A stretch of DNA of 64,000 bases, taken from contig CAMHTQ010000004.1 in assembly GCA_946188105.1 (NCBI GenBank), positions 41,890-105,889 on the forward strand. The letters are read 5' to 3'. The notes beneath the pieces were generated by a model. The model was not told where the DNA came from. It ran no database searches and was given only the letters and a program-made list of their open reading frames with translations. The DNA is from an uncultured Alphaproteobacteria bacterium. Its GTDB lineage: Bacteria > Pseudomonadota > Alphaproteobacteria > Rs-D84. The translations under genes and the position numbers were made by a program. This document shows, in pieces, positions 3,461 to 57,299 of the stretch (positions within the stretch are counted from its first letter, which is position 1; every line of letters begins with the position of its first letter).

Positions 3461-4486
3461 TCACACACGCACATAACCATTATTTGTTTTTCGCACTAAA
3501 CCGCGTAATTCTAAAACAACCAAATCGCGTTTGATTTCCGAAATCGTTTTTTTGACAACCTGTGCCAATACAGATTCAGAAACCGGAACTGAACCCAATG
3601 CATCCAACAACAAATTTTCACTTTCAGTATTTTTATCTGTTGCCAATTTATTTTTTCCAGTGTTATCAACCACTTCAAAAAAATCCCCTGCCCCAGAACA
3701 TAATTTTGCAACACCTTTTGCGATTAAACTGTTTGGTCCAGCCGAACGTGCATCCGACGGATGACTGGGAATTGCCCACAATTCTCGGCTAAAATCCAAT
3801 GCAAATTGAGCCGTTCTCATACTGCCAGATTTTAAATCTGCCTCGCTTAAAATTATTTTTTGTGAAATTCCAGCAATCCAACGATTTCTTTGAACAAAAT
3901 TTGCAGCCCTGGGGATAAATCCGATTGGCATTTCGCTGACCACCGCACCACGTTCAATAATTTCCCAATATAACGATTCGTTTTCCACAGGCCATATATA
4001 ATCAACACCACCGCCCAACACCGCAATTGTTTGAACATTTCCATTTGCACGTAATGCACCTTTGTGTGCCGCAGTATCCGTTCCAATCGCCATTCCAGAT
4101 ACAACCGCCACAGAATGTTTTGCAAATGTTTCTGCGATATCACTGACTAATTTCATACCAACCGCGGTTGCATGACGCGTTCCAACAATTCCAACACAAG
4201 AATGTGATAACACATCTAAATTTCCACGAACAGATATAATTGGTGGATGCCCTTTGATATTTTTCAAACTGACTGGATATAAATCCGAATCATCACATAC
4301 AAAATGAATTCCTAATTTATTTGCCGTATCTATTTCACGCAACACAGAATCCATCAAAGAAACATCATGACGCAAACTATCTGCAGCAGATTCCACAGAA
4401 CCAAATTGCCGAATCAATTTTTCATAACCAACCGGCCCAACTCCAGGCGAACGCAAAATCAACAATTTATCAATCAATTCAGACAT
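3461..4486 (-). CDS. dprA: DNA processing protein DprA (Smf)
   Basis: Rossmann-like DprA core (..VGIVGTRHATAVG..VVSGMAIGTDTAAHKGAL..) and a C-terminal winged-helix region. Confidence 0.85.
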   Translation of the reverse strand: MSELIDKLLILRSPGVGPVGYEKLIRQFGSVESAADSLRHDVSLMDSVLREIDTANKLGIHFVCDDSDLYPVSLKNIKGHPPIISVRGNLDVLSHSCVGIVGTRHATAVGMKLVSDIAETFAKHSVAVVSGMAIGTDTAAHKGALRANGNVQTIAVLGGGVDYIWPVENESLYWEIIERGAVVSEMPIGFIPRAANFVQRNRWIAGISQKIILSEADLKSGSMRTAQFALDFSRELWAIPSHPSDARSAGPNSLIAKGVAKLCSGAGDFFEVVDNTGKNKLATDKNTESENLLLDALGSVPVSESVLAQVVKKTISEIKRDLVVLELRGLVRKTNNGYVRV

Positions 4487-6530: not shown

Positions 6531-7463
6531 ATGACGGATTTAGATGAAGAATTATTCTTTTGTGTTATAAAAAATCAACCAATCAAAATACTTCAAACAC
6601 TTTTAGACATGGGTGCAAATATTAATGCCCGCGATGAAAATAGTTGCACACCGCTATTTTATGCAGGATCTGCAAAAACCATAAAGTTTTTAATCGATAA
6701 TGGTGCTGATGCAAAAGTAAAAAACGAAGCAAACATGACACCATTATTCATAGCAAAATCCCCAGAATGTGCACAAATACTTATCGATAATGGTGCTGAT
6801 GTTAATGCTATTGCTAAAACTGGCGAATCCGCATTATTTTGGGCAACAAACACTGATGTTGCAAAAACACTGCTTGATAATGGTGCAAACATTAACATTA
6901 TCGATGAATATGGATCCACAGTATTACATAAAAAAGCAATACACGATGAAAATTACGATATTGTAAAATTACTGATTGAACATGGTGCAAATGTTAATGC
7001 CCAAGATACACCAGAAAGAAATACACCATTACATAACACAACATCACCCAGAATCGCCCAATTACTAATTGATAATGGTGCAAATGTTAATATAAAAAAT
7101 AAATTTAATGCAACACCATTATATTGGACATACAACCCCCAGGTTGCACAAATATTGATTAATAATGGTGCCAATGTAAATGAAAAAACAATTGGTGATG
7201 ACACACCATTACATCATGCCGATAAACAAATGGCAATGGTATTAATTAAAAATAAAGCTGATGTAAACGCAAAAAACAAACTAAAACAAACACCACTGCA
7301 TCATGCATGCATGGATGAAAATTTGGATGTTATAAAATTATTAGTAAAAAATGGTGCTGATATAAATGCCCAAGATAAAAATGGCATAACACCTTTTGGG
7401 TTTGCTAAAGAAACAGGAAACAAAAAAATAATTACATACCTGAAATCACTAGGTTCGAAATAA
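6531..7463 (+). CDS. Ankyrin-repeat protein, a candidate host-interaction effector
   Basis: At least eight tandem ~33-aa ANK repeats (..TPLH.A......V..LI.NGADVNA..). Confidence 0.85.
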   Translation: MTDLDEELFFCVIKNQPIKILQTLLDMGANINARDENSCTPLFYAGSAKTIKFLIDNGADAKVKNEANMTPLFIAKSPECAQILIDNGADVNAIAKTGESALFWATNTDVAKTLLDNGANINIIDEYGSTVLHKKAIHDENYDIVKLLIEHGANVNAQDTPERNTPLHNTTSPRIAQLLIDNGANVNIKNKFNATPLYWTYNPQVAQILINNGANVNEKTIGDDTPLHHADKQMAMVLIKNKADVNAKNKLKQTPLHHACMDENLDVIKLLVKNGADINAQDKNGITPFGFAKETGNKKIITYLKSLGSK

Positions 7464-7502: not shown

Positions 7503-8081
7503 TTACTTACTTATACATTGTTGCTTATATTGTTTTATACAATTTTGACGCATTTCAACCTGAGCAAACAAATCTTGTCTGGATGCATGATTTAATCTGG
7601 ATACTTCACTTAAATCAGCTTCATTCAGGTTTGACATAAACAAACATTTACCTTCATCTACATTTTCAATATGAGCAACTGCAAATTTATTCAGTTTATG
7701 AAAATGCATATGATTTTGTGGGAACAATGTTAATACAGGTTCGCCAGTGGCTTTATCTAAATATTCAACGATTGTAGATCTTAACTTTTCACTCATAACT
7801 GGTTTCAATTTATCAAATGCATATACCATTTGTGTTGCCCCAGGATTAGGAAATGTTGTTCCACGCATCCAATCGCCCTCTTTTTGTTGTGGCGCACCAT
7901 TTAATGTTATAACAGATATCGGTGTACAAGGACACTCTGAAAACAAAGATAAATCTGCCATAATATTGTTTAACTTAACAACATATGTATTTTTCTTTTT
8001 ATGTGTTGGCCCAAATGTTCTTTTTGGTTGAACATTTTCAACAGCATTACCTTTAACATCTTTCTTAGCGAATAAACTCAT
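7503..8081 (-). CDS. Hypothetical protein with no signal peptide, encoded 121 bp downstream of the secretin gene
   Basis: 192-aa ORF on the same strand as the secretin. I recognise no family. Confidence 0.45.
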   Translation of the reverse strand: MSLFAKKDVKGNAVENVQPKRTFGPTHKKKNTYVVKLNNIMADLSLFSECPCTPISVITLNGAPQQKEGDWMRGTTFPNPGATQMVYAFDKLKPVMSEKLRSTIVEYLDKATGEPVLTLFPQNHMHFHKLNKFAVAHIENVDEGKCLFMSNLNEADLSEVSRLNHASRQDLFAQVEMRQNCIKQYKQQCISK

Positions 8082-8202: not shown

Positions 8203-9852
8203 TTAATTTAATGGAGCCCCCCAATTTTGTTGGATACTGCGTTCTGCATCCAATGGACTGATTAAAACTTGTGGTGTCAATATAACAACCAACACATCAC
8301 GTCCTGACGATGTTGAACGAGAACCTGACAATGCCATGAAATCAGGATCGCCTAAACCATAACGTGTGTCATTATTCTTTTGCTTTTCAAATCCAGACAC
8401 AACCAACATTTGACCAGATTCCATAATCACTTCTTGCATAAAGCTACGTTCTTCCACTTCGGGTAACTGTAATGTAACCTCGCCAATTGTCTGGGTTGAC
8501 ATCTTGATCAATTCACGAACAGACATTCTGAACAACAGCAAGATTTTGCCATTTTCCAAAACATTTGGTAACAACTGCATTGAAAAACCTGTCTGCAAAT
8601 CCGCCTGGTCAACGGTACTGGATTCCACAGTTGTAAAGTTACGTGATTCAAAACGTTTAATATATCCAGTTGATGTCATATTGCTAACTGGGGCAACACG
8701 ATTATTACGGGTTGTCACACCAACGTTTGTAACCAATGACACCTTACCCTGCTTTGCCAATGCCTCAATCAATCCAGCACTGCCAGCACCACGTGCCAAC
8801 GAGCCGTTCATAATTTGATCATTGGTATATGCACCATTAACCACACTGCCATTTTCTGTATGTGTCGCACCCGTTGTCGCAGACAATGCATTTGACAACA
8901 CCGCGATATTCATCGAACTGGCACCTGCCGCAGCCAAGTTATTCTTTGGATTTGCAACGATATTCAAACCCGATGTAGAATTAATAGCCGCAGCCAAATT
9001 CAAACCGAAAGCAGAATCATTAGATATAGAAACCTGCAACACCTTAACATCAATTGTTACCAATTGAGACAAACGTTTATTTTGCTTTTCTACATAATCA
9101 CTGATACGAGCCAACACAGATGGAGGTGCCGTTGCGGTAATTGTTCCCAAACTGCGAGAAACGGTAAATCCAGAATTTTCAGCCTTGCCTACGATTGCGG
9201 TCAATGCCTTTTCAACCTCGTCCCATTCCTTCATTGTGGATTCCAACACAACCTGGCCAGAGTTATCTGCCTGGACAGCTGTTTGATAAGAAATATCTGT
9301 TCCCAACGCATACAATGTAAATGTTCTTGTTTCTGTTTCATAGAACACAATGGCATTTTTATCATAATACCATAACAAATCTAAATCAGTCGCAACCTGA
9401 GACAACAAACCAGATAACTTGCCAGTATAGGCGACATTAATTGTTTTCTTTAACTTTTCACTATTAATTTGCTTATCAATTTTAACCGGAATTCTGGTTA
9501 CATTGTTTATGTTATTTGCCAAAACCTGCAAAGTTACAGGTTCATCCATTACAATTGTAATTCCAGTATCTGTTTCAAACTGGGCTGGCAAATTATTTTT
9601 ATGTTCCAAAGAGATTGATTTATTACCCAACCAAACACCCTCGGACATAGAAACCGTATCCCCACTTGCAACCTTGGCACGTGGATTTTTGGCCATTTCA
9701 AAAGCATCATATGCATTAACAAAATCCTGATCCACAGTCGATGCAACCTTTGCCGATTGTTCACGTGCACAGCCCGACACCAATGTACACAAACAGACAA
9801 TCATTAATATCTTTGTTAATAATCTCATATTCACTCTCCTAACTGTGGACAC
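8203..9852 (-). CDS. Lipoprotein secretin of the type IV pilus / type IVb family (PilN, TcpC, BfpB or MshL-like)
   Basis: Lipobox LVSGC after a signal peptide. The probable true start is the internal Met at 9828. The C-terminal secretin domain reads ..LQLPEVEERSF.QEV.MESGQMLVVSGF...GLGDPDFMALSG....RDVLVVILTPQVL. Confidence 0.75.
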   Translation of the reverse strand: MSTVRRVNMRLLTKILMIVCLCTLVSGCAREQSAKVASTVDQDFVNAYDAFEMAKNPRAKVASGDTVSMSEGVWLGNKSISLEHKNNLPAQFETDTGITIVMDEPVTLQVLANNINNVTRIPVKIDKQINSEKLKKTINVAYTGKLSGLLSQVATDLDLLWYYDKNAIVFYETETRTFTLYALGTDISYQTAVQADNSGQVVLESTMKEWDEVEKALTAIVGKAENSGFTVSRSLGTITATAPPSVLARISDYVEKQNKRLSQLVTIDVKVLQVSISNDSAFGLNLAAAINSTSGLNIVANPKNNLAAAGASSMNIAVLSNALSATTGATHTENGSVVNGAYTNDQIMNGSLARGAGSAGLIEALAKQGKVSLVTNVGVTTRNNRVAPVSNMTSTGYIKRFESRNFTTVESSTVDQADLQTGFSMQLLPNVLENGKILLLFRMSVRELIKMSTQTIGEVTLQLPEVEERSFMQEVIMESGQMLVVSGFEKQKNNDTRYGLGDPDFMALSGSRSTSSGRDVLVVILTPQVLISPLDAERSIQQNWGAPLN

Positions 9853-9859
9853 AGTTTAA

Positions 9860-10705
9860 TTATTCTTCATTAGTAGAAATCACCAAAACCAAATTTCCTT
9901 TATAGAACTTTGCATATGGCACAGGTGTTGCGCGTCCAAAATTACGAACCAGCGCAGATGCAACATCGGTAAAGCGACCTTTGAACACGGCACTTGCCTC
10001 GATTGGATATTCACGGGATGTTGCCCAAACCAAATCCCAACCTTCTTTATCACACCAACTTTGCAAAACCTCGCGCAGGGTTTGACCGTTTGCAACAACC
10101 CAAGAACGCACTTGATCTGTGGCGCCCTTTGGTGCCTCGGCATCAGAATCAGATTTCACAGCAATTTCAGCCATATCTTTTTCTGAATCCATTTCCATAA
10201 ATGCGGCATCCATGGCACCATTACGTTTTGTGCAATTTTTACGACCACTGCGAGAAACAGCCAAAACATTACCGCCATCATCTTCTAAAACCTCGCGACG
10301 TAACAAAGGCATTTCAGCACCATTTTCGCATTCATCATCAAATCCCATTGGAATTTGATTACCGTGCAACATATTGGCACCACCCGTCCATCCAGTTCCA
10401 TCAAAATCAAAACTGTTATCAACAATCATATCATCCCCGATTTTAGAAACGATACGGATTGAATCCCCGTTATTGACCTTGTCTTTGTCATCACATTTTA
10501 CGGTAACATCGGCATCAGAGCCCGCGATTGGCCACGCAGGAACATTAGCATAAGCCGCAGTTTCCACAGTAACCTGATCCTTGTTCTCTACCTGGGTTTG
10601 TTTAGTAAAAACCTCAGAAGTTGTAACCTGGGGTAAATATTCGCCGGCAAAACAATAGCCAGCAGCCGTTGCAAACATTGCAAAAATCAAAAACTTACGA
10701 AACAT
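9860..10705 (-). CDS. Secreted secretin-associated protein with a C-terminal TcpQ/STN-like domain (a PilL/TcpQ-like partner)
   Basis: Signal peptide. The C-terminal ..GQTLREVLQSWCDKEGWDLVW...YPIEASAVFKGRFTDVASALVRNF.. matches the secretin-associated STN/TcpQ pattern. It sits 8 bp upstream of the secretin gene. Confidence 0.5.
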   Translation of the reverse strand: MFRKFLIFAMFATAAGYCFAGEYLPQVTTSEVFTKQTQVENKDQVTVETAAYANVPAWPIAGSDADVTVKCDDKDKVNNGDSIRIVSKIGDDMIVDNSFDFDGTGWTGGANMLHGNQIPMGFDDECENGAEMPLLRREVLEDDGGNVLAVSRSGRKNCTKRNGAMDAAFMEMDSEKDMAEIAVKSDSDAEAPKGATDQVRSWVVANGQTLREVLQSWCDKEGWDLVWATSREYPIEASAVFKGRFTDVASALVRNFGRATPVPYAKFYKGNLVLVISTNEE

Positions 10706-14563: not shown

Positions 14564-15006
14564 TGTCTTTTAATCATTGAAATTGCATTTTCTAAAATAA
14601 CACGTGCAGATTCAGAATCTAACTTTTGTTTAATATCATCCCTGCGAACACGTCCCATTGATTCTTGTGCAACAGTGGATGTTAAATATTCATCTAACAA
14701 ACAAACAGGAATATCAACAATATTTAATAATTCATCAACACAAGTTCTAACAAACGTTGCCGTCTCTGATTCTGTTCCATCACCATGCAATGGTATTCCA
14801 AACACCACCCCAACAACTTTTTCATTTTTAACCAAATCAGCAATTTGCTGAGGAATCGTTTTATTTTTCTCTGGATTTATAACCGGACGCACAAACACCA
14901 TTTGACGAGATTCATCAGTTATTGCAATTCCTGTACGTTTGGCACCCCAATCGACCCCTAAAACCCGTCCTTTTACGGGAAAATCCTTGAAATCAGGCAA
15001 AAGCAT
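14560..15006 (-). CDS. ruvX: Holliday-junction resolvase-like RNase RuvX (YqgF)
   Basis: ..GRVLGVDWGAKRTGIAI.. N-terminus, ~150 aa, RNase H-like YqgF. Confidence 0.85.
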   Translation of the reverse strand: MLLPDFKDFPVKGRVLGVDWGAKRTGIAITDESRQMVFVRPVINPEKNKTIPQQIADLVKNEKVVGVVFGIPLHGDGTESETATFVRTCVDELLNIVDIPVCLLDEYLTSTVAQESMGRVRRDDIKQKLDSESARVILENAISMIKRQ

Positions 15007-15075
15007 TGTATAATTCCTTTACTTTTTAAATGATATAATGCCAATTAACATTTAGCAAGTATAAAAGGACTAAAA

Positions 15076-15384
15076 ATGCAACACACAATCACACAACAAG
15101 TTTCAATTACGGCATGCAATACATGTATGGTTCCTGTGGATATTAACCACACATCCGAATACGTGGATTATCAAATAGAAATGTACCGTACAAGTAATGG
15201 CTTAGAGATTGGTGCATTAAATAAATACAATGGCAAATTTTCATATCAAATAGGAAGTTGTGTTAATATTATTCCCCACCTGGTTGCCGACCCCAGATAT
15301 ACAGCATCTCCTGTATTCAGAAATATCATCAATGATAAATTTTTACAAGAATATATTGCTCTGCAACGCAGACAACCCAGATAA
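15076..15384 (+). CDS. Hypothetical protein
   Basis: 102-aa ORF with a plausible RBS. I recognise no family. Confidence 0.4.
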   Translation: MQHTITQQVSITACNTCMVPVDINHTSEYVDYQIEMYRTSNGLEIGALNKYNGKFSYQIGSCVNIIPHLVADPRYTASPVFRNIINDKFLQEYIALQRRQPR

Positions 15385-15465
15385 AAGTTTTATTTTCAGG
15401 TAATTCCTTGAAATTAAACAAAATAATAGTATAATTCATCTGCTTGAAAAAACATAGGATTGAAA

Positions 15466-15762
15466 ATGGCATTTAGTAAACAACAATTACGAAAATTCGC
15501 AGATTTAATTAAAATTGAAATCTCTGACGAAAAACTGGAACAAATGAATATCGACTCTGTGGTTGATTGGTTGGACAAATTACAAAAAATTGATACCAAG
15601 GGTGTTGAACCATTATTAAATCCATCAGAACACGACTTACCAATGCGTGCCGATGTTGTAACAGATGGAAATATTCGTGATAAAATTTTAGCAAACTCAC
15701 CTGACAAGGCGGGTGTTTCACGTGGATACTTTGCGGTTCCCAAAGTTATGGATGGCGATTAA
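15466..15762 (+). CDS. gatC: Asp-tRNA(Asn)/Glu-tRNA(Gln) amidotransferase subunit C
   Basis: ~98 aa, ..DKLQKIDTKGVEPL.. GatC pattern. It precedes gatA and gatB. Confidence 0.85.
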   Translation: MAFSKQQLRKFADLIKIEISDEKLEQMNIDSVVDWLDKLQKIDTKGVEPLLNPSEHDLPMRADVVTDGNIRDKILANSPDKAGVSRGYFAVPKVMDGD

Positions 15763-15774
15763 AGGAACAACTCA

Positions 15775-16452
15775 ATGGTAAAGAAACACAAAATCCATGA
15801 TCCAATGAAGACAGTAAGTGATACTGTTATGTGTGGCGCTGTTACAAAAAAAAGAACACGCAAAGAAAAACGCACCAAACGTCTGTTGGATTTGAATACC
15901 AAATATTGCCAATTATCCGATAAAATGATTGCTGAATGGAATCAGATAAAACATGATTTTCCATCACGCAAAGACGGTGAACCTATATCGCCCGAGGAAG
16001 AAAAATTCAACAAGGAATTTCATCAGATATTTAATAAATATAAAAAGAAATTAAATGAATTGAATGCAGAATCCAACGCAATATTTTTGATTGAAAACAA
16101 TATTGCACGTCGTGGAAAACCTTTGCATGCTGATACTGCAATTAAAAAATTGGAAAAAATGCAAAAGCGTGGCAGTATAAAAGCCGCTGTGCTAAAATTC
16201 GAAATTGAACGCAGCGAATTTCAAGAAGATTTATCGTTTCCAGCACAGGCTGAACACAACCTGCACTATTATTTGTATATAAATTATGGTGTCACATTAT
16301 TGAATGCCAGCACATACAAATATTGCCAAAGCAAAATTACAACATACAAATCATTTGGTAAATATGGCAACCCAGAATTACGTCATTGGCAAAATTTTGC
16401 AAAGAAATTTCATGCTGCCATCATCAATGCTGCAAATGTAAAAGGAAAGTAA
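15775..16452 (+). CDS. Hypothetical basic protein inserted between gatC and gatA, with an NLS-like basic tract
   Basis: Starts 12 bp after gatC. N-terminal KKRTRKEKRTKR cluster and coiled-coil-like composition. I recognise no family. Confidence 0.5.
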   Translation: MVKKHKIHDPMKTVSDTVMCGAVTKKRTRKEKRTKRLLDLNTKYCQLSDKMIAEWNQIKHDFPSRKDGEPISPEEEKFNKEFHQIFNKYKKKLNELNAESNAIFLIENNIARRGKPLHADTAIKKLEKMQKRGSIKAAVLKFEIERSEFQEDLSFPAQAEHNLHYYLYINYGVTLLNASTYKYCQSKITTYKSFGKYGNPELRHWQNFAKKFHAAIINAANVKGK

Positions 16453-16453
16453 T

Positions 16454-16831
16454 ATGGCAAAAAAGTCGAATGTACACTTAAAAACAGTTGAACACATCTA
16501 TGGATTGTCTGGTGCGCAGCCATGTGGTCATTTATCTGCTGATGAAATGAATGATTTAATTGAACAAATCAAAAATGCAAAAATTCCATTTGAATCTTGC
16601 ATAATATCAATGTCTGTCGATTTGTCACAATATTTCTGCAATATGAAAATATTCAAACTGGCATCCAAATCAGAACATTTAACAATCAACCTTAACACAT
16701 GCAAAAAATGTGGGATACATAAACAAATACATTGTCCAAAACAAATTGCATCAGGTAAATGCCAAGAAGAAATTGTGATAGATTTAATTGGCAAAAAATT
16801 ATTCGCTGACAAATATAACCAAGGAAAATAG
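16454..16831 (+). CDS. Hypothetical Cys/His-rich small protein, possibly zinc-ribbon-like, inserted between gatC and gatA
   Basis: Starts 1 bp after the preceding ORF and ends 11 bp before gatA. Contains C..H, CKKC..HC..C motifs. Confidence 0.5.
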   Translation: MAKKSNVHLKTVEHIYGLSGAQPCGHLSADEMNDLIEQIKNAKIPFESCIISMSVDLSQYFCNMKIFKLASKSEHLTINLNTCKKCGIHKQIHCPKQIASGKCQEEIVIDLIGKKLFADKYNQGK

Positions 16832-16842
16832 GAAGAAAAAAA

Positions 16843-18312
16843 ATGATTGATTTAACAATAGTTGAAGCATTGAAAAAACTAAAAGCACGCGAAATATCCG
16901 CAACAGAATTGACACGTGCGCATCTTTCCCGTATTGAAAAATTCGGGTCTGAATTAAATTGCTATATTACAACAACACCTGAACGTGCATTATCCGATGC
17001 GGCGGCGGCGGATGCTCGTTATGCGTCTGGCGAAGCAAAAGTTTTAGACGGTATTCCAATTGCGATGAAGGATTTATTTGCGACATGTGGAATTCGCACA
17101 ACGGCTGCATCACGCATGCTGGAAAATTTTGTTCCAGAATATGAATCAACAATTTCACAAAAATATATTGATGCCGGAACAGTATTGTTGGGCAAGGCAA
17201 ACTTGGACGAATTTGCAATGGGCACGTTTTCTAAAACTTCCTATTTTGGTGCTCCTGTCAGTCCTTGGCAACGTGAACGTCGCTTGACCGCTGGTGGTTC
17301 ATCTGGCGGAACAACATCGGCTGTGGCGGGCGGTCTTGCAATGGGCGGAACCGGAACCGATACTGGTGGTTCGATTCGTTTTCCTGCATCCATTACTGGA
17401 TTAGTTGGTGTAAAACCAACATATGGTTTGTGTTCTCGTTGGGGTTGTGTTGCATTCGCATCCAGTTTAGATACCCCAGGTCCAATCGCACGTACTGTTG
17501 ATGATGCTGCATTGTTATTATCAATTATGGCGGGACATGATCCAAAAGATTCAACCAGCAGCCCAAATCAAAATTTCCACGTCGACGGCGAATTAGAACC
17601 AATTTTGGGTAATGGAAAAAAATTGCGTATTGGTATAATCAAAGAATTCAAAGATGTTGAAATCTCGGCTGATATGAAACGAATATTCGATGCACGTGTT
17701 AACGATTTAAAATCTGCTGGTGCTGAAATTGTTGAGGTTTCAATTCCAAATATCCTTGATGCATTGGCGGCATATTACATTATCGCTCCGGCCGAGGCAT
17801 CATCAAACCTGGCACGTTATGACGGTGTTCGTTATGGTTTGCGTGTCGAAGGCAACGATATTTATGACACATATAAAAAGACACGTGCAGCTGGCTTTGG
17901 CGAAGAAGTCCAACGTCGTATGATTATCGGAACCGCTGTGTTATCTTCATCCTCATACGATGTATATTTCATGCAGGCAGCACGCGTTCGTCGTTTAATC
18001 GCAGATGCATTCAACCAAGCATTCGAACAATGCGATTTGATTGTATGCCCTGCTGGTGCAGGAACCGCAATGCCATTAGATTCTGATCTGACGCCATTGG
18101 AATATTACGCATTGGATTTATTCACCGTTGCAATGAATTTGGCTGGTATCCCAGCGGTGAGTACCCCTGCAGGACTGGCTGAAAACAAATTACCATTGGG
18201 TATGCAAGTTGTAGGAAAACGTTTTGATGATTTACGTACATTACAACTGGCAAAACATATCCAACAATTCAGTGGTGTTGATAATCGTCCAACAATAATA
18301 ATGGGGAAATAA
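16843..18312 (+). CDS. gatA: Glutamyl-tRNA(Gln) amidotransferase subunit A
   Basis: Amidase signature ..GGSSGG..GTDTGGSIR... Confidence 0.9.
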   Translation: MIDLTIVEALKKLKAREISATELTRAHLSRIEKFGSELNCYITTTPERALSDAAAADARYASGEAKVLDGIPIAMKDLFATCGIRTTAASRMLENFVPEYESTISQKYIDAGTVLLGKANLDEFAMGTFSKTSYFGAPVSPWQRERRLTAGGSSGGTTSAVAGGLAMGGTGTDTGGSIRFPASITGLVGVKPTYGLCSRWGCVAFASSLDTPGPIARTVDDAALLLSIMAGHDPKDSTSSPNQNFHVDGELEPILGNGKKLRIGIIKEFKDVEISADMKRIFDARVNDLKSAGAEIVEVSIPNILDALAAYYIIAPAEASSNLARYDGVRYGLRVEGNDIYDTYKKTRAAGFGEEVQRRMIIGTAVLSSSSYDVYFMQAARVRRLIADAFNQAFEQCDLIVCPAGAGTAMPLDSDLTPLEYYALDLFTVAMNLAGIPAVSTPAGLAENKLPLGMQVVGKRFDDLRTLQLAKHIQQFSGVDNRPTIIMGK

Positions 18313-18326
18313 AGAGTATAAAAAAA

Positions 18327-18402
18327 TGGTGGCCAGAAGTGGAATCGAACCACTGACACAGGGATTTTCAGTCCCTTGCTCTACCAACTGAGCTATCTGG
18401 CC
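18327..18402 (-). tRNA. tRNA-Phe (GAA)
   Basis: 76-nt cloverleaf GGCCAGATAGCTCAGTTGGTAGAGCAAGGGACTGAAAATCCCTGTGTCAGTGGTTCGATTCCACTTCTGGCCACCA. Anticodon GAA, encoded CCA. Confidence 0.9.
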
Positions 18403-18515: not shown

Positions 18516-20039
18516 ATGTACACGATAAAAGGCAAAACAGGTGATTGGGAAGTAGTGATTGGACTCGAAACGCATATCGAGGTTTTATCAAATAGCAAGA
18601 TTTTCAGCGGTGCATCTGCAAATTATAACCCATCGGTTGCCCCAAACACCCAGGTTTCCATGGTTGACGCGGCCATGCCTGGTATGTTACCTGTATTAAA
18701 TGAATACTGTGTTGACCAGGCAATTAAATTTGGTCTGGGTATCAATGCAGAAATTTCTCGTGTCAGTCGCTTTGCCCGTAAACAATATTTTTACCCTGAC
18801 CTGCCCCAAGGTTACCAAATTTCACAACCTGCCGAAGAACCACCTGTCGTTGGTCGCGGTTGGATTGAAATTTTAGGCGATGATGGCAACCCTAAAAAAA
18901 TTTTAATTGAACGCGCACACATGGAACAAGATGCTGCGAAAAACAAACACGATATGCACCCATCAAAATCTTTTGTTGATTTGAACCGTTCGGGTGTTAT
19001 GTTGCTGGAAATCGTAACATTTTTGGATACAAAAAATCCTGAAAACAATTCATACATCACATCTCCTGACGAGGCAGAAAGATACCTGCGTGCGATTCGT
19101 GAATTGGCACGTGCATTGGGTGTATCCAAGGCCAATATGGAGGAAGGTTCCATGCGCGCAGATGTCAATGTATCTGTGAAACGTGTTGGTTCAAATACAT
19201 TTGGCACACGTACAGAAACAAAAAACATGGTGTCTTTCAAATTCATTAAAACCGCTATTGAATACGAGGCACGTCGTCAAATAGAAATCTTGGAAAACGG
19301 TGGCACAGTATCCCAAGACACAATGCGTTATAACCAAGGTGATGGCACAACATCTGTATTGCGCAGCAAAGAAGATGCATTGGATTATCGTTATTTCCCA
19401 GATCCAGATTTATTACCATTGGTAATTACAGATGAACAAATTGAACGCGTTCGTCGTACTATGCCAGAATTACCTGCGGCCACACGTACACGTTATATCG
19501 AAAAATTTGGTTTACCAGAATACGATGCCGCTCGCTTAACTGAAACAGTTGATATTTCACGTTGGTTCGATACTGCGGTTGGAAACAAACCAGAACGTGC
19601 CAAGGCAATTGCAAACTGGATGATTTCTGAATTATTTGCACATCCTGAAAACTTTGATATCACAAACGAGGTACGTGAACGTCCTGCTGACGAACCACGT
19701 ATTATCACACCAGAAAACTTGGCTGAATTGGTTGATATGATATCTGCAAACGAAATCAACGGTAAACAAGCCAAAGAAATCTTTATCAAAATGTTGGATG
19801 GTGAAACCGGCACACCAAAAGAAATCGCTGATAAATTTGGTATGAAACAAATGACCGATGTGTCTGCAATTGAAAAGGTTATCGACGATGTTATCGCTGC
19901 AAATCCATCACAGGTTGAACAATATAAATCTGGCAAGGTTGGATTGTTTGGATTCTTTGTTGGTTCCGTGATGAAGGCAACCGGTGGCAAAGCAAACCCA
20001 GCTACAGTTAACGAGATATTGAAAAAGAAACTGGGTTAA
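18516..20039 (+). CDS. gatB: Aspartyl/glutamyl-tRNA amidotransferase subunit B
   Basis: ..WEVVIGLETHIEV.. N-terminus and a GatB/YqeY C-terminal domain. Confidence 0.9.
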   Translation: MYTIKGKTGDWEVVIGLETHIEVLSNSKIFSGASANYNPSVAPNTQVSMVDAAMPGMLPVLNEYCVDQAIKFGLGINAEISRVSRFARKQYFYPDLPQGYQISQPAEEPPVVGRGWIEILGDDGNPKKILIERAHMEQDAAKNKHDMHPSKSFVDLNRSGVMLLEIVTFLDTKNPENNSYITSPDEAERYLRAIRELARALGVSKANMEEGSMRADVNVSVKRVGSNTFGTRTETKNMVSFKFIKTAIEYEARRQIEILENGGTVSQDTMRYNQGDGTTSVLRSKEDALDYRYFPDPDLLPLVITDEQIERVRRTMPELPAATRTRYIEKFGLPEYDAARLTETVDISRWFDTAVGNKPERAKAIANWMISELFAHPENFDITNEVRERPADEPRIITPENLAELVDMISANEINGKQAKEIFIKMLDGETGTPKEIADKFGMKQMTDVSAIEKVIDDVIAANPSQVEQYKSGKVGLFGFFVGSVMKATGGKANPATVNEILKKKLG

Positions 20040-20042
20040 TTT

Positions 20043-20477
20043 ATGTCTGACATTATTGTTTTTATATCGCCAAAATTCAAAGATTGCGATTTACAAAAAA
20101 TCGCAGAATCAATGCGTATACACAAAATAACAACAACCGACGATATACGCAATGCAACCGTCGTTTTAGAACCTGTATTATACGACACACAATCAGAACC
20201 AAAAAATACGTCGATTATAATTGCCACAGAACCAAACAAACCAACCGCAACATTGGCTGATATCGCCGAAAAAATTGTGGATGAAACTCGGGGGCAAATT
20301 TTTAAATTAAAGGAAAATTTAATGTCTGATATACCAGAGGTCATTGCTGCATCAATGGTATTGCCAAAGAAATCTCATCACCGTAAAAATATGTATCCAA
20401 AACAATCGTTATACAATTTCAAAAGTATAAACAACATACGTAACAACAGAATTTTTAACAGAACAAACCATAAATAG
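20043..20477 (+). CDS. Hypothetical protein
   Basis: 144-aa ORF immediately after gatB. I recognise no family. Confidence 0.35.
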   Translation: MSDIIVFISPKFKDCDLQKIAESMRIHKITTTDDIRNATVVLEPVLYDTQSEPKNTSIIIATEPNKPTATLADIAEKIVDETRGQIFKLKENLMSDIPEVIAASMVLPKKSHHRKNMYPKQSLYNFKSINNIRNNRIFNRTNHK

Positions 20478-20493: not shown

Positions 20494-20664
20494 ATGAAAA
20501 TTGTTACTATTATCGAAAACAATCCAATAACTGGCGTTCGCTATGGAACCGTAGAAATTTCTGAATACAATAATAATATTCAAAGAAGATTAGATAGATA
20601 CTATAATGCTCGCAATAAAAGAAGATATCTTGCAGTTCGTGCACAAAATACAAAACACAAATAA
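20494..20664 (+). CDS. Small hypothetical protein of 56 aa
   Basis: Strong AGGAAAGGA RBS 5 nt upstream of the ATG. Below the ORF-track length cutoff. Confidence 0.3.
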   Translation: MKIVTIIENNPITGVRYGTVEISEYNNNIQRRLDRYYNARNKRRYLAVRAQNTKHK

Positions 20665-55355: not shown

Positions 55356-57299
55356 TTACTTCTTTTTTTCTATTCTATATGCAATAAATCCGCCAATTAC
55401 ACTAATCATCAAAATTATTAAAAACCATGCATCACGACCTAATAATCTGTATAATGTCATATGACTGCCACGAACTGTGCCATCTAAAATACCTGACTGC
55501 CCTATTGGTAAACTGGATATAATTTTACCATCCGCACCAATAAACGCACTAATACCAGAATAATTAGCCCTGATTACAGGCATTCCATATTCAATTGCCC
55601 CCCGACGTGCCATATCCATATGTTGATATGTTCCAGGTGTCGCACCAAACCAAGTATCATTTGACACATTTATAATTGCATCTGCAACCTCATCTTTAAT
55701 AACCGCATCTGAAAAAATAATTTCATAACATACAGCCGGTGCAAAAACGAATTTCTTGTCTTTATTTATCTGTAACGCAATTGTTCTGGCACCACCCCCA
55801 GATGTTAAATTAGCAGGTGTCGGCACAAACTTAATCGGGCCATATTCACCAAACGGAACCAAATGGGATTTACCATAAAATTCAATCATTTTTCCAGAAC
55901 TATCAGATATAGCCAATGCGTTATAAACCTTTCTGTCATAATCAACAACATTTGCACCAATTAAAACCGGTATTTTTAATTGCTTCGCAATCGGCATATA
56001 ATCATCAGGCATTAACGCAAATGGATAAGATGTTTCAGGATATAAAGCAACATCTACATTTGACACATCACCAGCCATTTTTACCAATTCTTCGACCCGA
56101 GCTTCTGCCCGATTTAATGCATCCGCACGCGATAAAGCAATCTTGGACTCTTGTGTTGTAACTGGTTGCACAATACGCACAACAATCGAATTTTCACCCA
56201 AATTTGATACAGATATATTGTTATACCCATATCCCATTCCAACACACAATAAAATAAAGAAAAATCCAAAAGAAACCCAATTTACTTTGTTTGCCCTGTT
56301 ATGTAAAATCTGTACAACCGACGCAATCATACCCATTATAACAAATGTCAGCCCCAATGCACCAAACAAAGACATAGAGTTAGAAATCACACCACTGGAC
56401 AATGTTATATTTGAAATTGGATTCCATGGAAATCCAGTTAAAAACCATTCACGCAACCATAAAACAAATGTACAACCAAATGCGAACACAAATGGCTTTA
56501 CGCCTGATTTAGTGTATATACATTGTGTAAATACATACGGAATAACAAAGAATATAATACCAAAAATTCCAATTCCGATTAACGCTGGCACGGTCCAAAC
56601 TGCAAATTGTTTTGTTATTTCTGGAACAACATAAATAGAATGCACAGTCCACCAAAACATAGAAATTGAATACATGGCACCAAACGGCATTGCCCGTAAC
56701 CAAGCCCGCCAAAAACCGATTTTTTCATTATCTAAACACAATAACCAATATGCACCTGCAATTGCTAAAACTGTTACCCACCACATATTAAATGGCGCAA
56801 ACCCTAATGACGCAACCCCACCAAACAATGCACATAAAAGATATTTCCACCATGCAAATTTTTTTGTATTTTCATCCATATATGGATTTTTTATTCTCAA
56901 TTTTTTCAATACAGCAATTTCTTTTGATTCCATCACTTTGGCCTGAGCATCCGTTAAATGATCATATCCCAACAAATGAAACATGCCATGCACAACCATA
57001 TGCGCAACATGATCTTCGACAGAAATTTTAGCATCTTTGGCCTCGTGAACAACAGTATCTAATGAAATATAAATATCACCCAACAATATATCATCACCTA
57101 ATTCAAAAGATAAAACATTCGTGGGCTTATCCATATCACGATACATTTTATTCAATGCATGAATTTCATCATCATCAACCAAAGTAATCGAAACTTCAGA
57201 TTTTTTATATTTTATTCCAACGACCGCATTTGCAATTTTTTCAAAATTGATATTATATTTTTTCCAACGCTTATCATTATAATTAACAAAAACCTTCAT
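55356..57299 (-). CDS. lnt: Apparent in-frame fusion of the rRNA maturation RNase YbeY (N-terminal ~140 aa) with apolipoprotein N-acyltransferase Lnt
   Basis: YbeY motif ..HMVVHGMFHLLGYDH.. in the first ~140 aa. From ..MDENTKKFAWWK.. onward there is the Lnt multi-TM region plus a CN-hydrolase domain. No stop separates them in the 647-aa ORF. Confidence 0.7.
   Translation of the reverse strand: MKVFVNYNDKRWKKYNINFEKIANAVVGIKYKKSEVSITLVDDDEIHALNKMYRDMDKPTNVLSFELGDDILLGDIYISLDTVVHEAKDAKISVEDHVAHMVVHGMFHLLGYDHLTDAQAKVMESKEIAVLKKLRIKNPYMDENTKKFAWWKYLLCALFGGVASLGFAPFNMWWVTVLAIAGAYWLLCLDNEKIGFWRAWLRAMPFGAMYSISMFWWTVHSIYVVPEITKQFAVWTVPALIGIGIFGIIFFVIPYVFTQCIYTKSGVKPFVFAFGCTFVLWLREWFLTGFPWNPISNITLSSGVISNSMSLFGALGLTFVIMGMIASVVQILHNRANKVNWVSFGFFFILLCVGMGYGYNNISVSNLGENSIVVRIVQPVTTQESKIALSRADALNRAEARVEELVKMAGDVSNVDVALYPETSYPFALMPDDYMPIAKQLKIPVLIGANVVDYDRKVYNALAISDSSGKMIEFYGKSHLVPFGEYGPIKFVPTPANLTSGGGARTIALQINKDKKFVFAPAVCYEIIFSDAVIKDEVADAIINVSNDTWFGATPGTYQHMDMARRGAIEYGMPVIRANYSGISAFIGADGKIISSLPIGQSGILDGTVRGSHMTLYRLLGRDAWFLIILMISVIGGFIAYRIEKKK

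Follow-up and report, generated by a model that had tools for sequence, protein, structure and literature searches.

Why do two genes of no recognised family stand between gatC and gatA, which encode subunits of an enzyme essential for translation, in an uncultured alphaproteobacterium? The question is raised by a stretch of 64,000 nucleotides (nt) of contig CAMHTQ010000004.1 (assembly GCA_946188105.1, positions 41,890 to 105,889; GTDB lineage Rs-D84), henceforth called the window. A preliminary description, made from the letters of the window alone, had placed two open reading frames (ORFs), here named A and B, between gatC and gatA, and their coordinates and gaps (12 nt between gatC and A, 1 nt between A and B, and 11 nt between B and gatA) were recovered exactly. 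The evidence presented here favours, with moderate confidence, the reading that the gatC-gatA junction of this rumen alphaproteobacterial lineage is a fixed slot for interchangeable, promoterless whole-gene cassettes, i.e., a site of the minimal mobile element (MME) type. The window is one state of this slot, an A gene of class A-alpha (Aα) followed by a B gene of class B1.

The content of the slot was compared across related loci, all of which are metagenome contigs or metagenome-assembled genomes (MAGs). Proteins were assigned to families via hidden Markov models (HMMs), and allele classes were defined by single linkage at an amino acid (aa) identity of at least 75%. The junction was recovered in 19 distinct loci, which contain one to four genes each and represent 17 architectures (Table 1). 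Two variable families, A and B, dominate the slot with eight and at least 15 allele classes, respectively (assignments that depend on the 75% threshold), and three further cassette families are rarer, namely X141, orf102, and a cassette with the C-terminal domain of the RNA polymerase alpha subunit (alpha-CTD, αCTD). The content of the slot is variable, and each of the two families is individually dispensable: L034 carries a single A gene, and a lone B gene was found in two independent assemblies (L035/L036). The flanks are syntenic throughout (sufBD, sufC, AI-2E transporter, ruvX, gatC, gatA, gatB, miaB), with 66–94% aa identity to the window for SufC, AI-2E, GatC, GatA, GatB, and MiaB. Across the slot loci, GatC is 79–94% and GatA as well as GatB 81–94% identical to the window, and a set of related loci gives 92–94% for GatC and 92–93% for GatA. 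With regard to within-species variation, a look-up of the exact GatC of the window recovered only the same arrangement. The preliminary description had suspected an insertion, and the synteny of gatCAB in relatives gave a slot of variable content between a conserved gatC and a conserved gatA. In more distant genomes (L017, L027, L028, L029), family A also occurs outside the gat cluster, with a B-like gene at a distance of two genes from the A gene in L028. A link of the L028 locus to a defence island was not convincing, as its neighbours gave only weak domain-level PADLOC matches (Schlafen/AlbA-type, methyltransferase).

Table 1. Cassettes found between gatC and gatA in the window and in related loci
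Locus	Slot content
Window, L001	Aα-B1
L019	Aα-B1-Aβ-B11
L008	Aα-B2-Aβ
L025	Aα-B2
L022	B2-Aβ
L024	B3-Aα-B4
L011	B4-orf102-Aβ
L004	B5-Aβ
L020	B3-B12-A7-Aβ
L021	B3-B13-Aβ
L012	B6-B7-B8-A4
L014	X141-B9-A5-A3
L030	B15 (274-aa fusion)-A3
L015	orf102-B10-αCTD-A6
L026	B14-X141-A8
L034	one Aα/Aβ chimera, nothing else
L035/L036	one B, nothing else

Alleles of the slot genes have been swapped between diverged genomes. When the window was compared with five loci, synonymous divergence (dS) amounted to 0.07–0.28 for Aα and 0.12–0.23 for B1, and to 0.6–1.4 for sufC, the AI-2E transporter gene, gatC, gatA, gatB, and miaB (gatC, 0.7–1.4; gatA, 0.6–0.8). At the nucleotide level, Aα was 88–98% and B1 94–96% identical where gatA was 83–87% identical, with Aα surpassing gatA in all 15 pairs and B1 in all three. 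Along the sequence (100-nt windows), identity rises from about 80–88% to 95–99% at the start codon of A; it drops at the end of A in L025 and L008, whose next gene is a B allele of 40% identity, and at the end of B in L019. The 12-nt spacer between gatC and A moves together with A. Near-identical Aα genes have B1, B2, or B3/B4 as partners, although these B alleles share only 40–50% identity with each other. Over the last ~70 nt of B, nucleotide conservation extends to all alleles, even to those encoding 40%-identical proteins, and this conserved 3′ end is likely a recombination arm. Chimeric A genes joined at conserved motifs exist as well. One of them, P0011, matches Aα at 95–100% identity over its first ~160 residues and Aβ at 80–100% after the conserved NLHYYL motif, and a second, P0033, is joined at the FLIANNIARRGK motif. 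P0011 is the gene that stands alone in the slot of L034, as is expected if tandem A genes recombined and thereby deleted what lay between them.

Under the cassette-slot reading, cassettes would be gained, lost, reordered, and replaced through homologous recombination, with recombination arms provided by the conserved gat flanks and, within the cassette genes, by their conserved ends and motifs. Incoming DNA would probably be taken up via natural transformation, and the cassettes would probably be transcribed from the gatC promoter, each with its own ribosome-binding site. Such an exchange would involve neither an integrase nor a transposase, attC-like site, or flanking repeat. No integrase, transposase, or other recombinase was found within ±8 kb in the Pfam lists, and a repeat search returned direct and inverted repeats at chance level only and no att-like sites. 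An integron or an insertion sequence-like structure was rejected due to this lack of repeats and att-like sites; the intergenic gaps within the slots measure 0–32 nt and are hence too short for attC-like sites. The window encodes DprA, TcpQ together with a secretin, and RecJ, a gene content that is consistent with natural transformation.

Several observations weigh against this reading. Transformation is deduced from gene content only, and neither a DNA-uptake sequence nor an over-represented 9–12-mer was detected in the window, in which one 12-mer has four copies, all within unrelated coding regions. All loci are metagenome-derived, so that assembly chimeras are not fully excluded, and the A-only slot rests on a single contig (L034). 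No empty gatC-gatA junction was retrieved from a sister lineage, and the polarity of insertion is therefore not shown. Aβ diverges roughly with gatA, apart from some exceptions, and thus not every cassette was recently exchanged. Finally, PADLOC returned no match for A or B.

A and B are genuine genes and not spurious ORFs, since they have relatives in databases, are intact in related loci, and show ratios of nonsynonymous to synonymous divergence (dN/dS) below 1. For A, 33 relatives were found in a database of 5.8 billion proteins, and an exhaustive profile search of 1.84 billion representative proteins gave 52 hits, all of ~200 aa; B has 13 database relatives. Wherever a source is named for these relatives, it is a ruminant-gut MAG (RUG or RGIG isolates) assigned to an unclassified alphaproteobacterium or proteobacterium. 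The reading frames of A and B are intact in all related loci. Among same-allele pairs, including the comparison of the window with the five loci above, dN/dS was 0.28–0.54 for A (Aα) and 0.14–0.19 for B (B1); the flanking genes gave 0.03–0.18 and the gat genes 0.03–0.13, with dN/dS of the slot genes being 3–8 times that of the gat genes. The preliminary description had named disruption or non-conservation in closely related strains as a sign of spurious ORFs, and no disruption was observed in the related loci.

The two genes define two previously undescribed protein families. A, B, orf102, and two small ORFs downstream of gatB (orf144 and orf56) remained without a match in Pfam, NCBIfam, PHROGs, and PADLOC, profile searches against PDB sequences returned nothing below an E-value of 0.018, and a structure search against BFVD returned no match for A below an E-value of 0.4, so that none of the searches made yielded a family or fold for A or for B. 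A literature search on genes between gatC and gatA gave nothing relevant. No viral, phage, or plasmid relatives were present in IMG/VR, INPHARED, or PLSDB, on which grounds a phage, plasmid, or viral origin was rejected. The preliminary description was right in that the two ORFs represent an unrecognised insertion of selfish or accessory character, and this insertion is restricted to the lineage.

Proteins of family A are ~200–230 aa long and very basic. The AlphaFold2 model of A is confident (predicted local distance difference test score, pLDDT, 86; predicted template modelling score, pTM, 0.78) and comprises a beta-hairpin (residues 13–30), a long helical hairpin (35–56/73–107), and a helical globule (119–222). 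In this model, the basic tract KKRTRKEKRTKR makes up strand two of the N-terminal beta-hairpin and continues into the beginning of helix 1 (pLDDT 76–89). Within the tract, K30 and T34 are invariant, and it is kept as TRKEKRTKR in the hairpin-bearing subfamilies and missing from distant members of the family. The most conserved stretch of family A is its signature motif (FLIANNIARRGKPLHxDTAIKKL in A), in which 35 diverse members share I110, A111, and L117 without exception and H118 almost without exception. Further conserved motifs are NLHYYL…YGVTLLD and NF.KKFH, and the conserved basic elements include RRGKxLH...KKL and KKFH. Such motifs persist between members that are only 20–30% identical. 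Given its very basic character and its conserved Arg, Lys, and His motifs, A probably binds nucleic acid. In proteins of family B, which are ~120–145 aa long with 5–10 Cys, the N-terminal two-thirds vary and the Cys-rich C-terminal module is conserved. B itself has seven Cys and six His in total and the spacing C83-x2-C86-x7-C94-x8-C103; C24, C49, C86, C94, and C103 are invariant (n = 5), and B probably binds metal through the invariant cysteines. Its AlphaFold2 model is mediocre (pLDDT 69). The slot proteins have isoelectric points (pI) of ~8–9.7, and no hydrophobic, transmembrane, or signal segments were detected in any of them.

The single-stranded DNA-binding protein (SSB) of bacteria ends in a C-terminal peptide tip (…DDDIPF) on which replication and repair enzymes dock. 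In the alignment of family A, 36 of the 80 full-length proteins end in Phe and 30 in PF-COOH, usually after an acidic residue ([D/E]-x-[R/K/M/I]-P-F-COOH, as in DNRPF, QEIPF, NEMPF, and RDMPF); examples are encoded at 8001–8693 of L004, 6609–7208 of L014, and 7001–7666 of L028. The likeness of these ends to the SSB tip is a resemblance only, and the Aα of the window ends in …NVKGK without a PF tip.

Among the rarer cassettes, the alpha-CTD family is represented by stand-alone genes for 134 aa in L015 (5596–6000) and L018 (1056–1460), which encode an alpha-CTD (PF03118; E-values of 3.7e-16 and 4.9e-09, respectively) followed by a coiled coil. A slot protein of 274 aa in L030 (6168–6992) seems to have arisen by fusion, with one half resembling X141 and the other resembling B. 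Both halves end in a motif of the Cys…G.KLFP..Y type, a sign that X141 may belong to family B as a divergent member. The match between X141 and B in profile alignment is confined to the Cys-G-K-C…LF motif (hhalign E-value 0.056) and is suggestive at most. Comparisons of orf102 with B and of alpha-CTD with A revealed no relation.

As to function, we tentatively propose that A and B act independently of each other as soluble, cytoplasmic accessory proteins, nucleic-acid-binding in the case of A and metal-binding in the case of B, which would be of a conflict type and not housekeeping partners of GatCAB; this possibility is put forward with considerable doubt. Conflict type here refers to phage- or competitor-related functions under frequency-dependent selection, and this part is just as tentative, being derived from the deep allele classes, the gene-specific sweeps across species, and the variable copy number, which are typical of conflict genes. 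More speculatively still, A and B might represent a new class of small nucleic-acid-directed conflict proteins (anti-phage or anti-competitor) that are shuffled as cassettes in an essential operon, with the [D/E]-x-P-F tip mimicking the SSB tail and the alpha-CTD cassette belonging to the same toolkit. The position in an essential operon would in that case guarantee constitutive expression and make a clean deletion costly, and the tip of many A proteins would hook replication or recombination enzymes.

The alternatives have to account for the same loci. One of two interpretations offered in the preliminary description was that A and B form an addiction or toxin-antitoxin pair stabilised inside an essential operon. 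Two small, adjacent, co-directional genes 1 nt apart, with a patchy distribution, frequent horizontal exchange, and many paralogs, would suit such a pair, as would the co-occurrence of A and B in 16 of the 17 in-clade architectures and the proximity of a B-like gene to A outside the gat cluster in L028. Slots with only A (L034) or only B (L035/L036) contradict this interpretation, however, as do A:B ratios of 1:3, 1:2, and 2:2 (BBBA, BBA, and AABB-type slots) and the reassortment of alleles, by which A-alpha is found with four different B classes (B1, B2, B3, B4) of only 40–50% identity. Moreover, no toxin or antitoxin family, domain, or fold was detected in A or B, and the 12-nt gap leaves no space for an autoregulated promoter, so that we regard an addiction pair as very unlikely. 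The other interpretation was that A is a host-targeted effector (a nucleomodulin with a nuclear localisation signal, NLS) with B as its partner or chaperone, exported into a eukaryote, e.g., a rumen protist. It draws on the basic KKRTRKEKRTKR tract, on the lineage restriction and fast turnover of the family, and on an ankyrin-repeat protein encoded in the window; in addition, deep-branching Rickettsiales MAGs from the rumen are mentioned in PMC10847448, although no link to the window is shown. Yet the tract is not a floppy tag but lies inside a confidently modelled and conserved beta-hairpin, many family A members lack it, and an NLS-like match is expected by composition because the whole of A is basic (pI 9.7). 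Neither A nor B has a eukaryote-like domain, no secretion apparatus tied to the two genes was found, and the secretion genes of the window, i.e., a TCP-type pilus secretin (TcpQ and secretin) and an autotransporter, are not known to deliver proteins into host cells. Extensive recombination between species and the presence of competence genes are in keeping with a life in contact with free DNA. The proposal of an NLS-bearing effector thus found no support, and we give it little credence.

A functional tie to the surrounding operon would be another explanation, with A and B assisting or regulating GatCAB, the transamidosome, or tRNA metabolism. Within the clade, both are indeed always located at the gatC-gatA junction, a tRNA-Phe gene and miaB are neighbours, and very basic proteins could bind RNA. 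Copy number, order, and alleles of the slot genes vary, however, while GatA, GatB, and GatC remain conserved (Table 1 and identities above), either family can be missing, and family A also occurs away from the gat genes. Its confinement to one clade and a narrow metagenome set, with 52 representatives among 1.84 billion proteins, and the elevated dN/dS relative to the gat genes likewise speak against such a role, and the fidelity to the site is explained by flank-guided homologous recombination, which does not require a functional link to GatCAB. A role in GatCAB function is hence most improbable. The dN/dS values above those of the flanks and the lack of a known family might point to ORFs that have no function and are just decaying or meaningless insertions, but intact frames in every locus at dN/dS of 0.14–0.54, strong motifs kept across members of 20–30% identity, the confident model of A, and ribosome-binding sites kept at every junction of the compared loci make this extremely improbable.

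For the reading of the junction as a cassette slot, the closest known analogue is provided by the MMEs of Neisseria, among them the pheS/pheT site (Saunders & Snyder 2002; Snyder et al. 2007; as described in PMC3082526). Both are flanked by a conserved gene pair (here gatC and gatA in 19 loci), contain different whole-gene cassettes in different genomes, and lack mobility genes and repeats; exchange in the slot would likewise run via homologous recombination in a (probably) transformable organism. Like the pheS/pheT site, the slot lies between the genes for two subunits of an enzyme essential to translation. It differs from MMEs in that its cassettes are promoterless and packed in an operon with gaps of 0–32 nt, and in that they belong to a small set of paralogous orphan families that also recombine with one another via conserved gene ends and motifs, yielding reordered arrays and chimeras. 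In addition, no uptake sequence was found in the window, and the cargo matches no known system, restriction-modification or other. Integron arrays share promoterless single-gene cassettes of variable number and order behind one upstream promoter, whereas the slot is devoid of attC, IntI, and attI, and its breakpoints lie in coding sequence and flanks. Defence or accessory hotspots that core genes flank, e.g., the core defence hotspots of Pseudomonas aeruginosa (bioRxiv 10.1101/2022.11.11.516204), resemble the slot in their fixed, flanked position, their variable, exchanged cargo, and their deep allelic diversity; compared with these, the slot has no known defence gene (PADLOC) and consists of single tiny genes in an operon, not of multi-gene islands. 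Type II toxin-antitoxin systems are likewise small, adjacent, mobile genes with many paralogs, but the slot genes show no 1:1 pairing, occur as lone genes, and have neither known domains nor a dedicated promoter.

If the cassette-slot reading holds true, an essential translation operon would offer fast-shuffling accessory genes both a stable landing site and a platform for expression, and this shuffling would occur in an uncultured gut lineage without dedicated mobility machinery. The MME idea would then extend beyond Neisseria-like pathogens, with recombination of cassettes through conserved gene ends as an added feature. For annotation, it would mean that genes embedded in housekeeping operons need not be functionally linked to them. 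The locus also defines two protein families without known relatives, of which A has a confident and novel predicted architecture. Novel families, gene-specific sweeps across species, and deep allelic classes in combination make the slot genes reasonable candidates for experimental screens.

The layout of the interval in the window is summarised in Table 2. A Shine-Dalgarno-like AGGA/AAGGAA precedes every gene from gatC over A and B to gatA. Since a sigma-70-like site is located before gatC and no terminator-like site was found on the + strand between gatC and gatA, co-transcription of gatC, A, B, and gatA from the candidate gatC promoter is plausible, and to this extent the co-transcription with gatC assumed in the preliminary description stands, though by inference only. 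Its outline of the gat operon was correct with regard to the insertion between gatC and gatA, but gatB does not directly follow gatA: the two are separated by a tRNA-Phe(GAA) gene of opposite orientation, and gatB is therefore not simply part of one gatCAB transcript. The gatA-tRNA-Phe-gatB interval is conserved in relatives, and an Rfam scan of the region detected this tRNA and no other RNA element.

Table 2. Positions of the features discussed, numbered from the first letter of the window
Feature	Position	Strand	Description
gatC	15466–15762	+	ATG start; Pfam GatC, E-value 1.7e-13; left flank of the slot
Cassette gene A (ORF A, class A-alpha, Aα)	15775–16452	+	225 aa, pI 9.7, orphan family
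Basic tract KKRTRKEKRTKR in A	15847–15882	+	A residues 25–36
Signature motif of family A	16084–16152	+	residues 104–126, FLI(A/E)NNIARRGKPLHxDTAIKKL
Cassette gene B (ORF B, class B1)	16454–16831	+	125 aa, pI 8.8, 7 Cys, orphan family
Conserved C-terminal module of B	16700–16816	+	residues 83–121, Cys motif and LIGKKLFADKY
gatA	16843–18312	+	Pfam Amidase, E-value 7.9e-134; right flank of the slot
tRNA-Phe(GAA)	18327–18402	-	between gatA and gatB
gatB	18516–20039	+	Pfam GatB_N, E-value 4.3e-100; GatB_Yqey, E-value 2.4e-44
Sigma-70-like promoter candidate	15408–15435	+	TTGAAA-16-TATAAT upstream of gatC; 11 of 12 positions match, consensus match only
orf102	15076–15384	+	small accessory gene; promoter-like site at 14987–15014
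orf144	20043–20477	+	144 aa, small orphan ORF between gatB and miaB
orf56	20494–20664	+	56 aa, small orphan ORF between gatB and miaB
gyrB	101–1834
dnaA	1882–3147
dprA	3461–4486
Ankyrin-repeat gene	6531–7463		310 aa
Secretin/TcpQ homologues	8203–10705		by synteny with L001
647-aa ORF	55356–57299	-	YbeY endoribonuclease (residues 15–134), LNT_N and CN_hydrolase (160–611)

Variable content is not restricted to the gatC-gatA junction. Between ruvX and gatC, orf102 is present in L007/L008, L019, and L021 and absent in L001 and L025 (a clean gap of ~400 nt), and it lies inside the gatC-gatA slot in L011 and L015; this distribution marks the ruvX-gatC junction as a second variable site that draws on the same cassette pool. 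The gatB-miaB junction is a third one. Its two small ORFs, orf144 and orf56, are far less conserved than the flanks, with aa identities of 52–75% and 62–71%, respectively, in close relatives and ~31–32% in L012 and L014, and orf144 is missing in L007, L011, L025, and L015. A fourth variable junction is located between the AI-2E transporter gene and ruvX, which are adjacent in the window (14516/14560). At this junction, L034 (2853–3197) and L035 (3569–3940) carry a gene for a TM2/zinc-ribbon or superinfection-immunity-family (PF14373) protein, the superinfection-immunity-family gene being that of L035.

Elsewhere in the window, dprA and the TCP-type pilus secretin genes are situated close to the ankyrin-repeat gene, and the window is probably near the replication origin, as it adjoins dnaA and gyrB. 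The 647-aa ORF combines its YbeY domain with apolipoprotein N-acyltransferase domains and is thus an apparent ybeY-lnt fusion.

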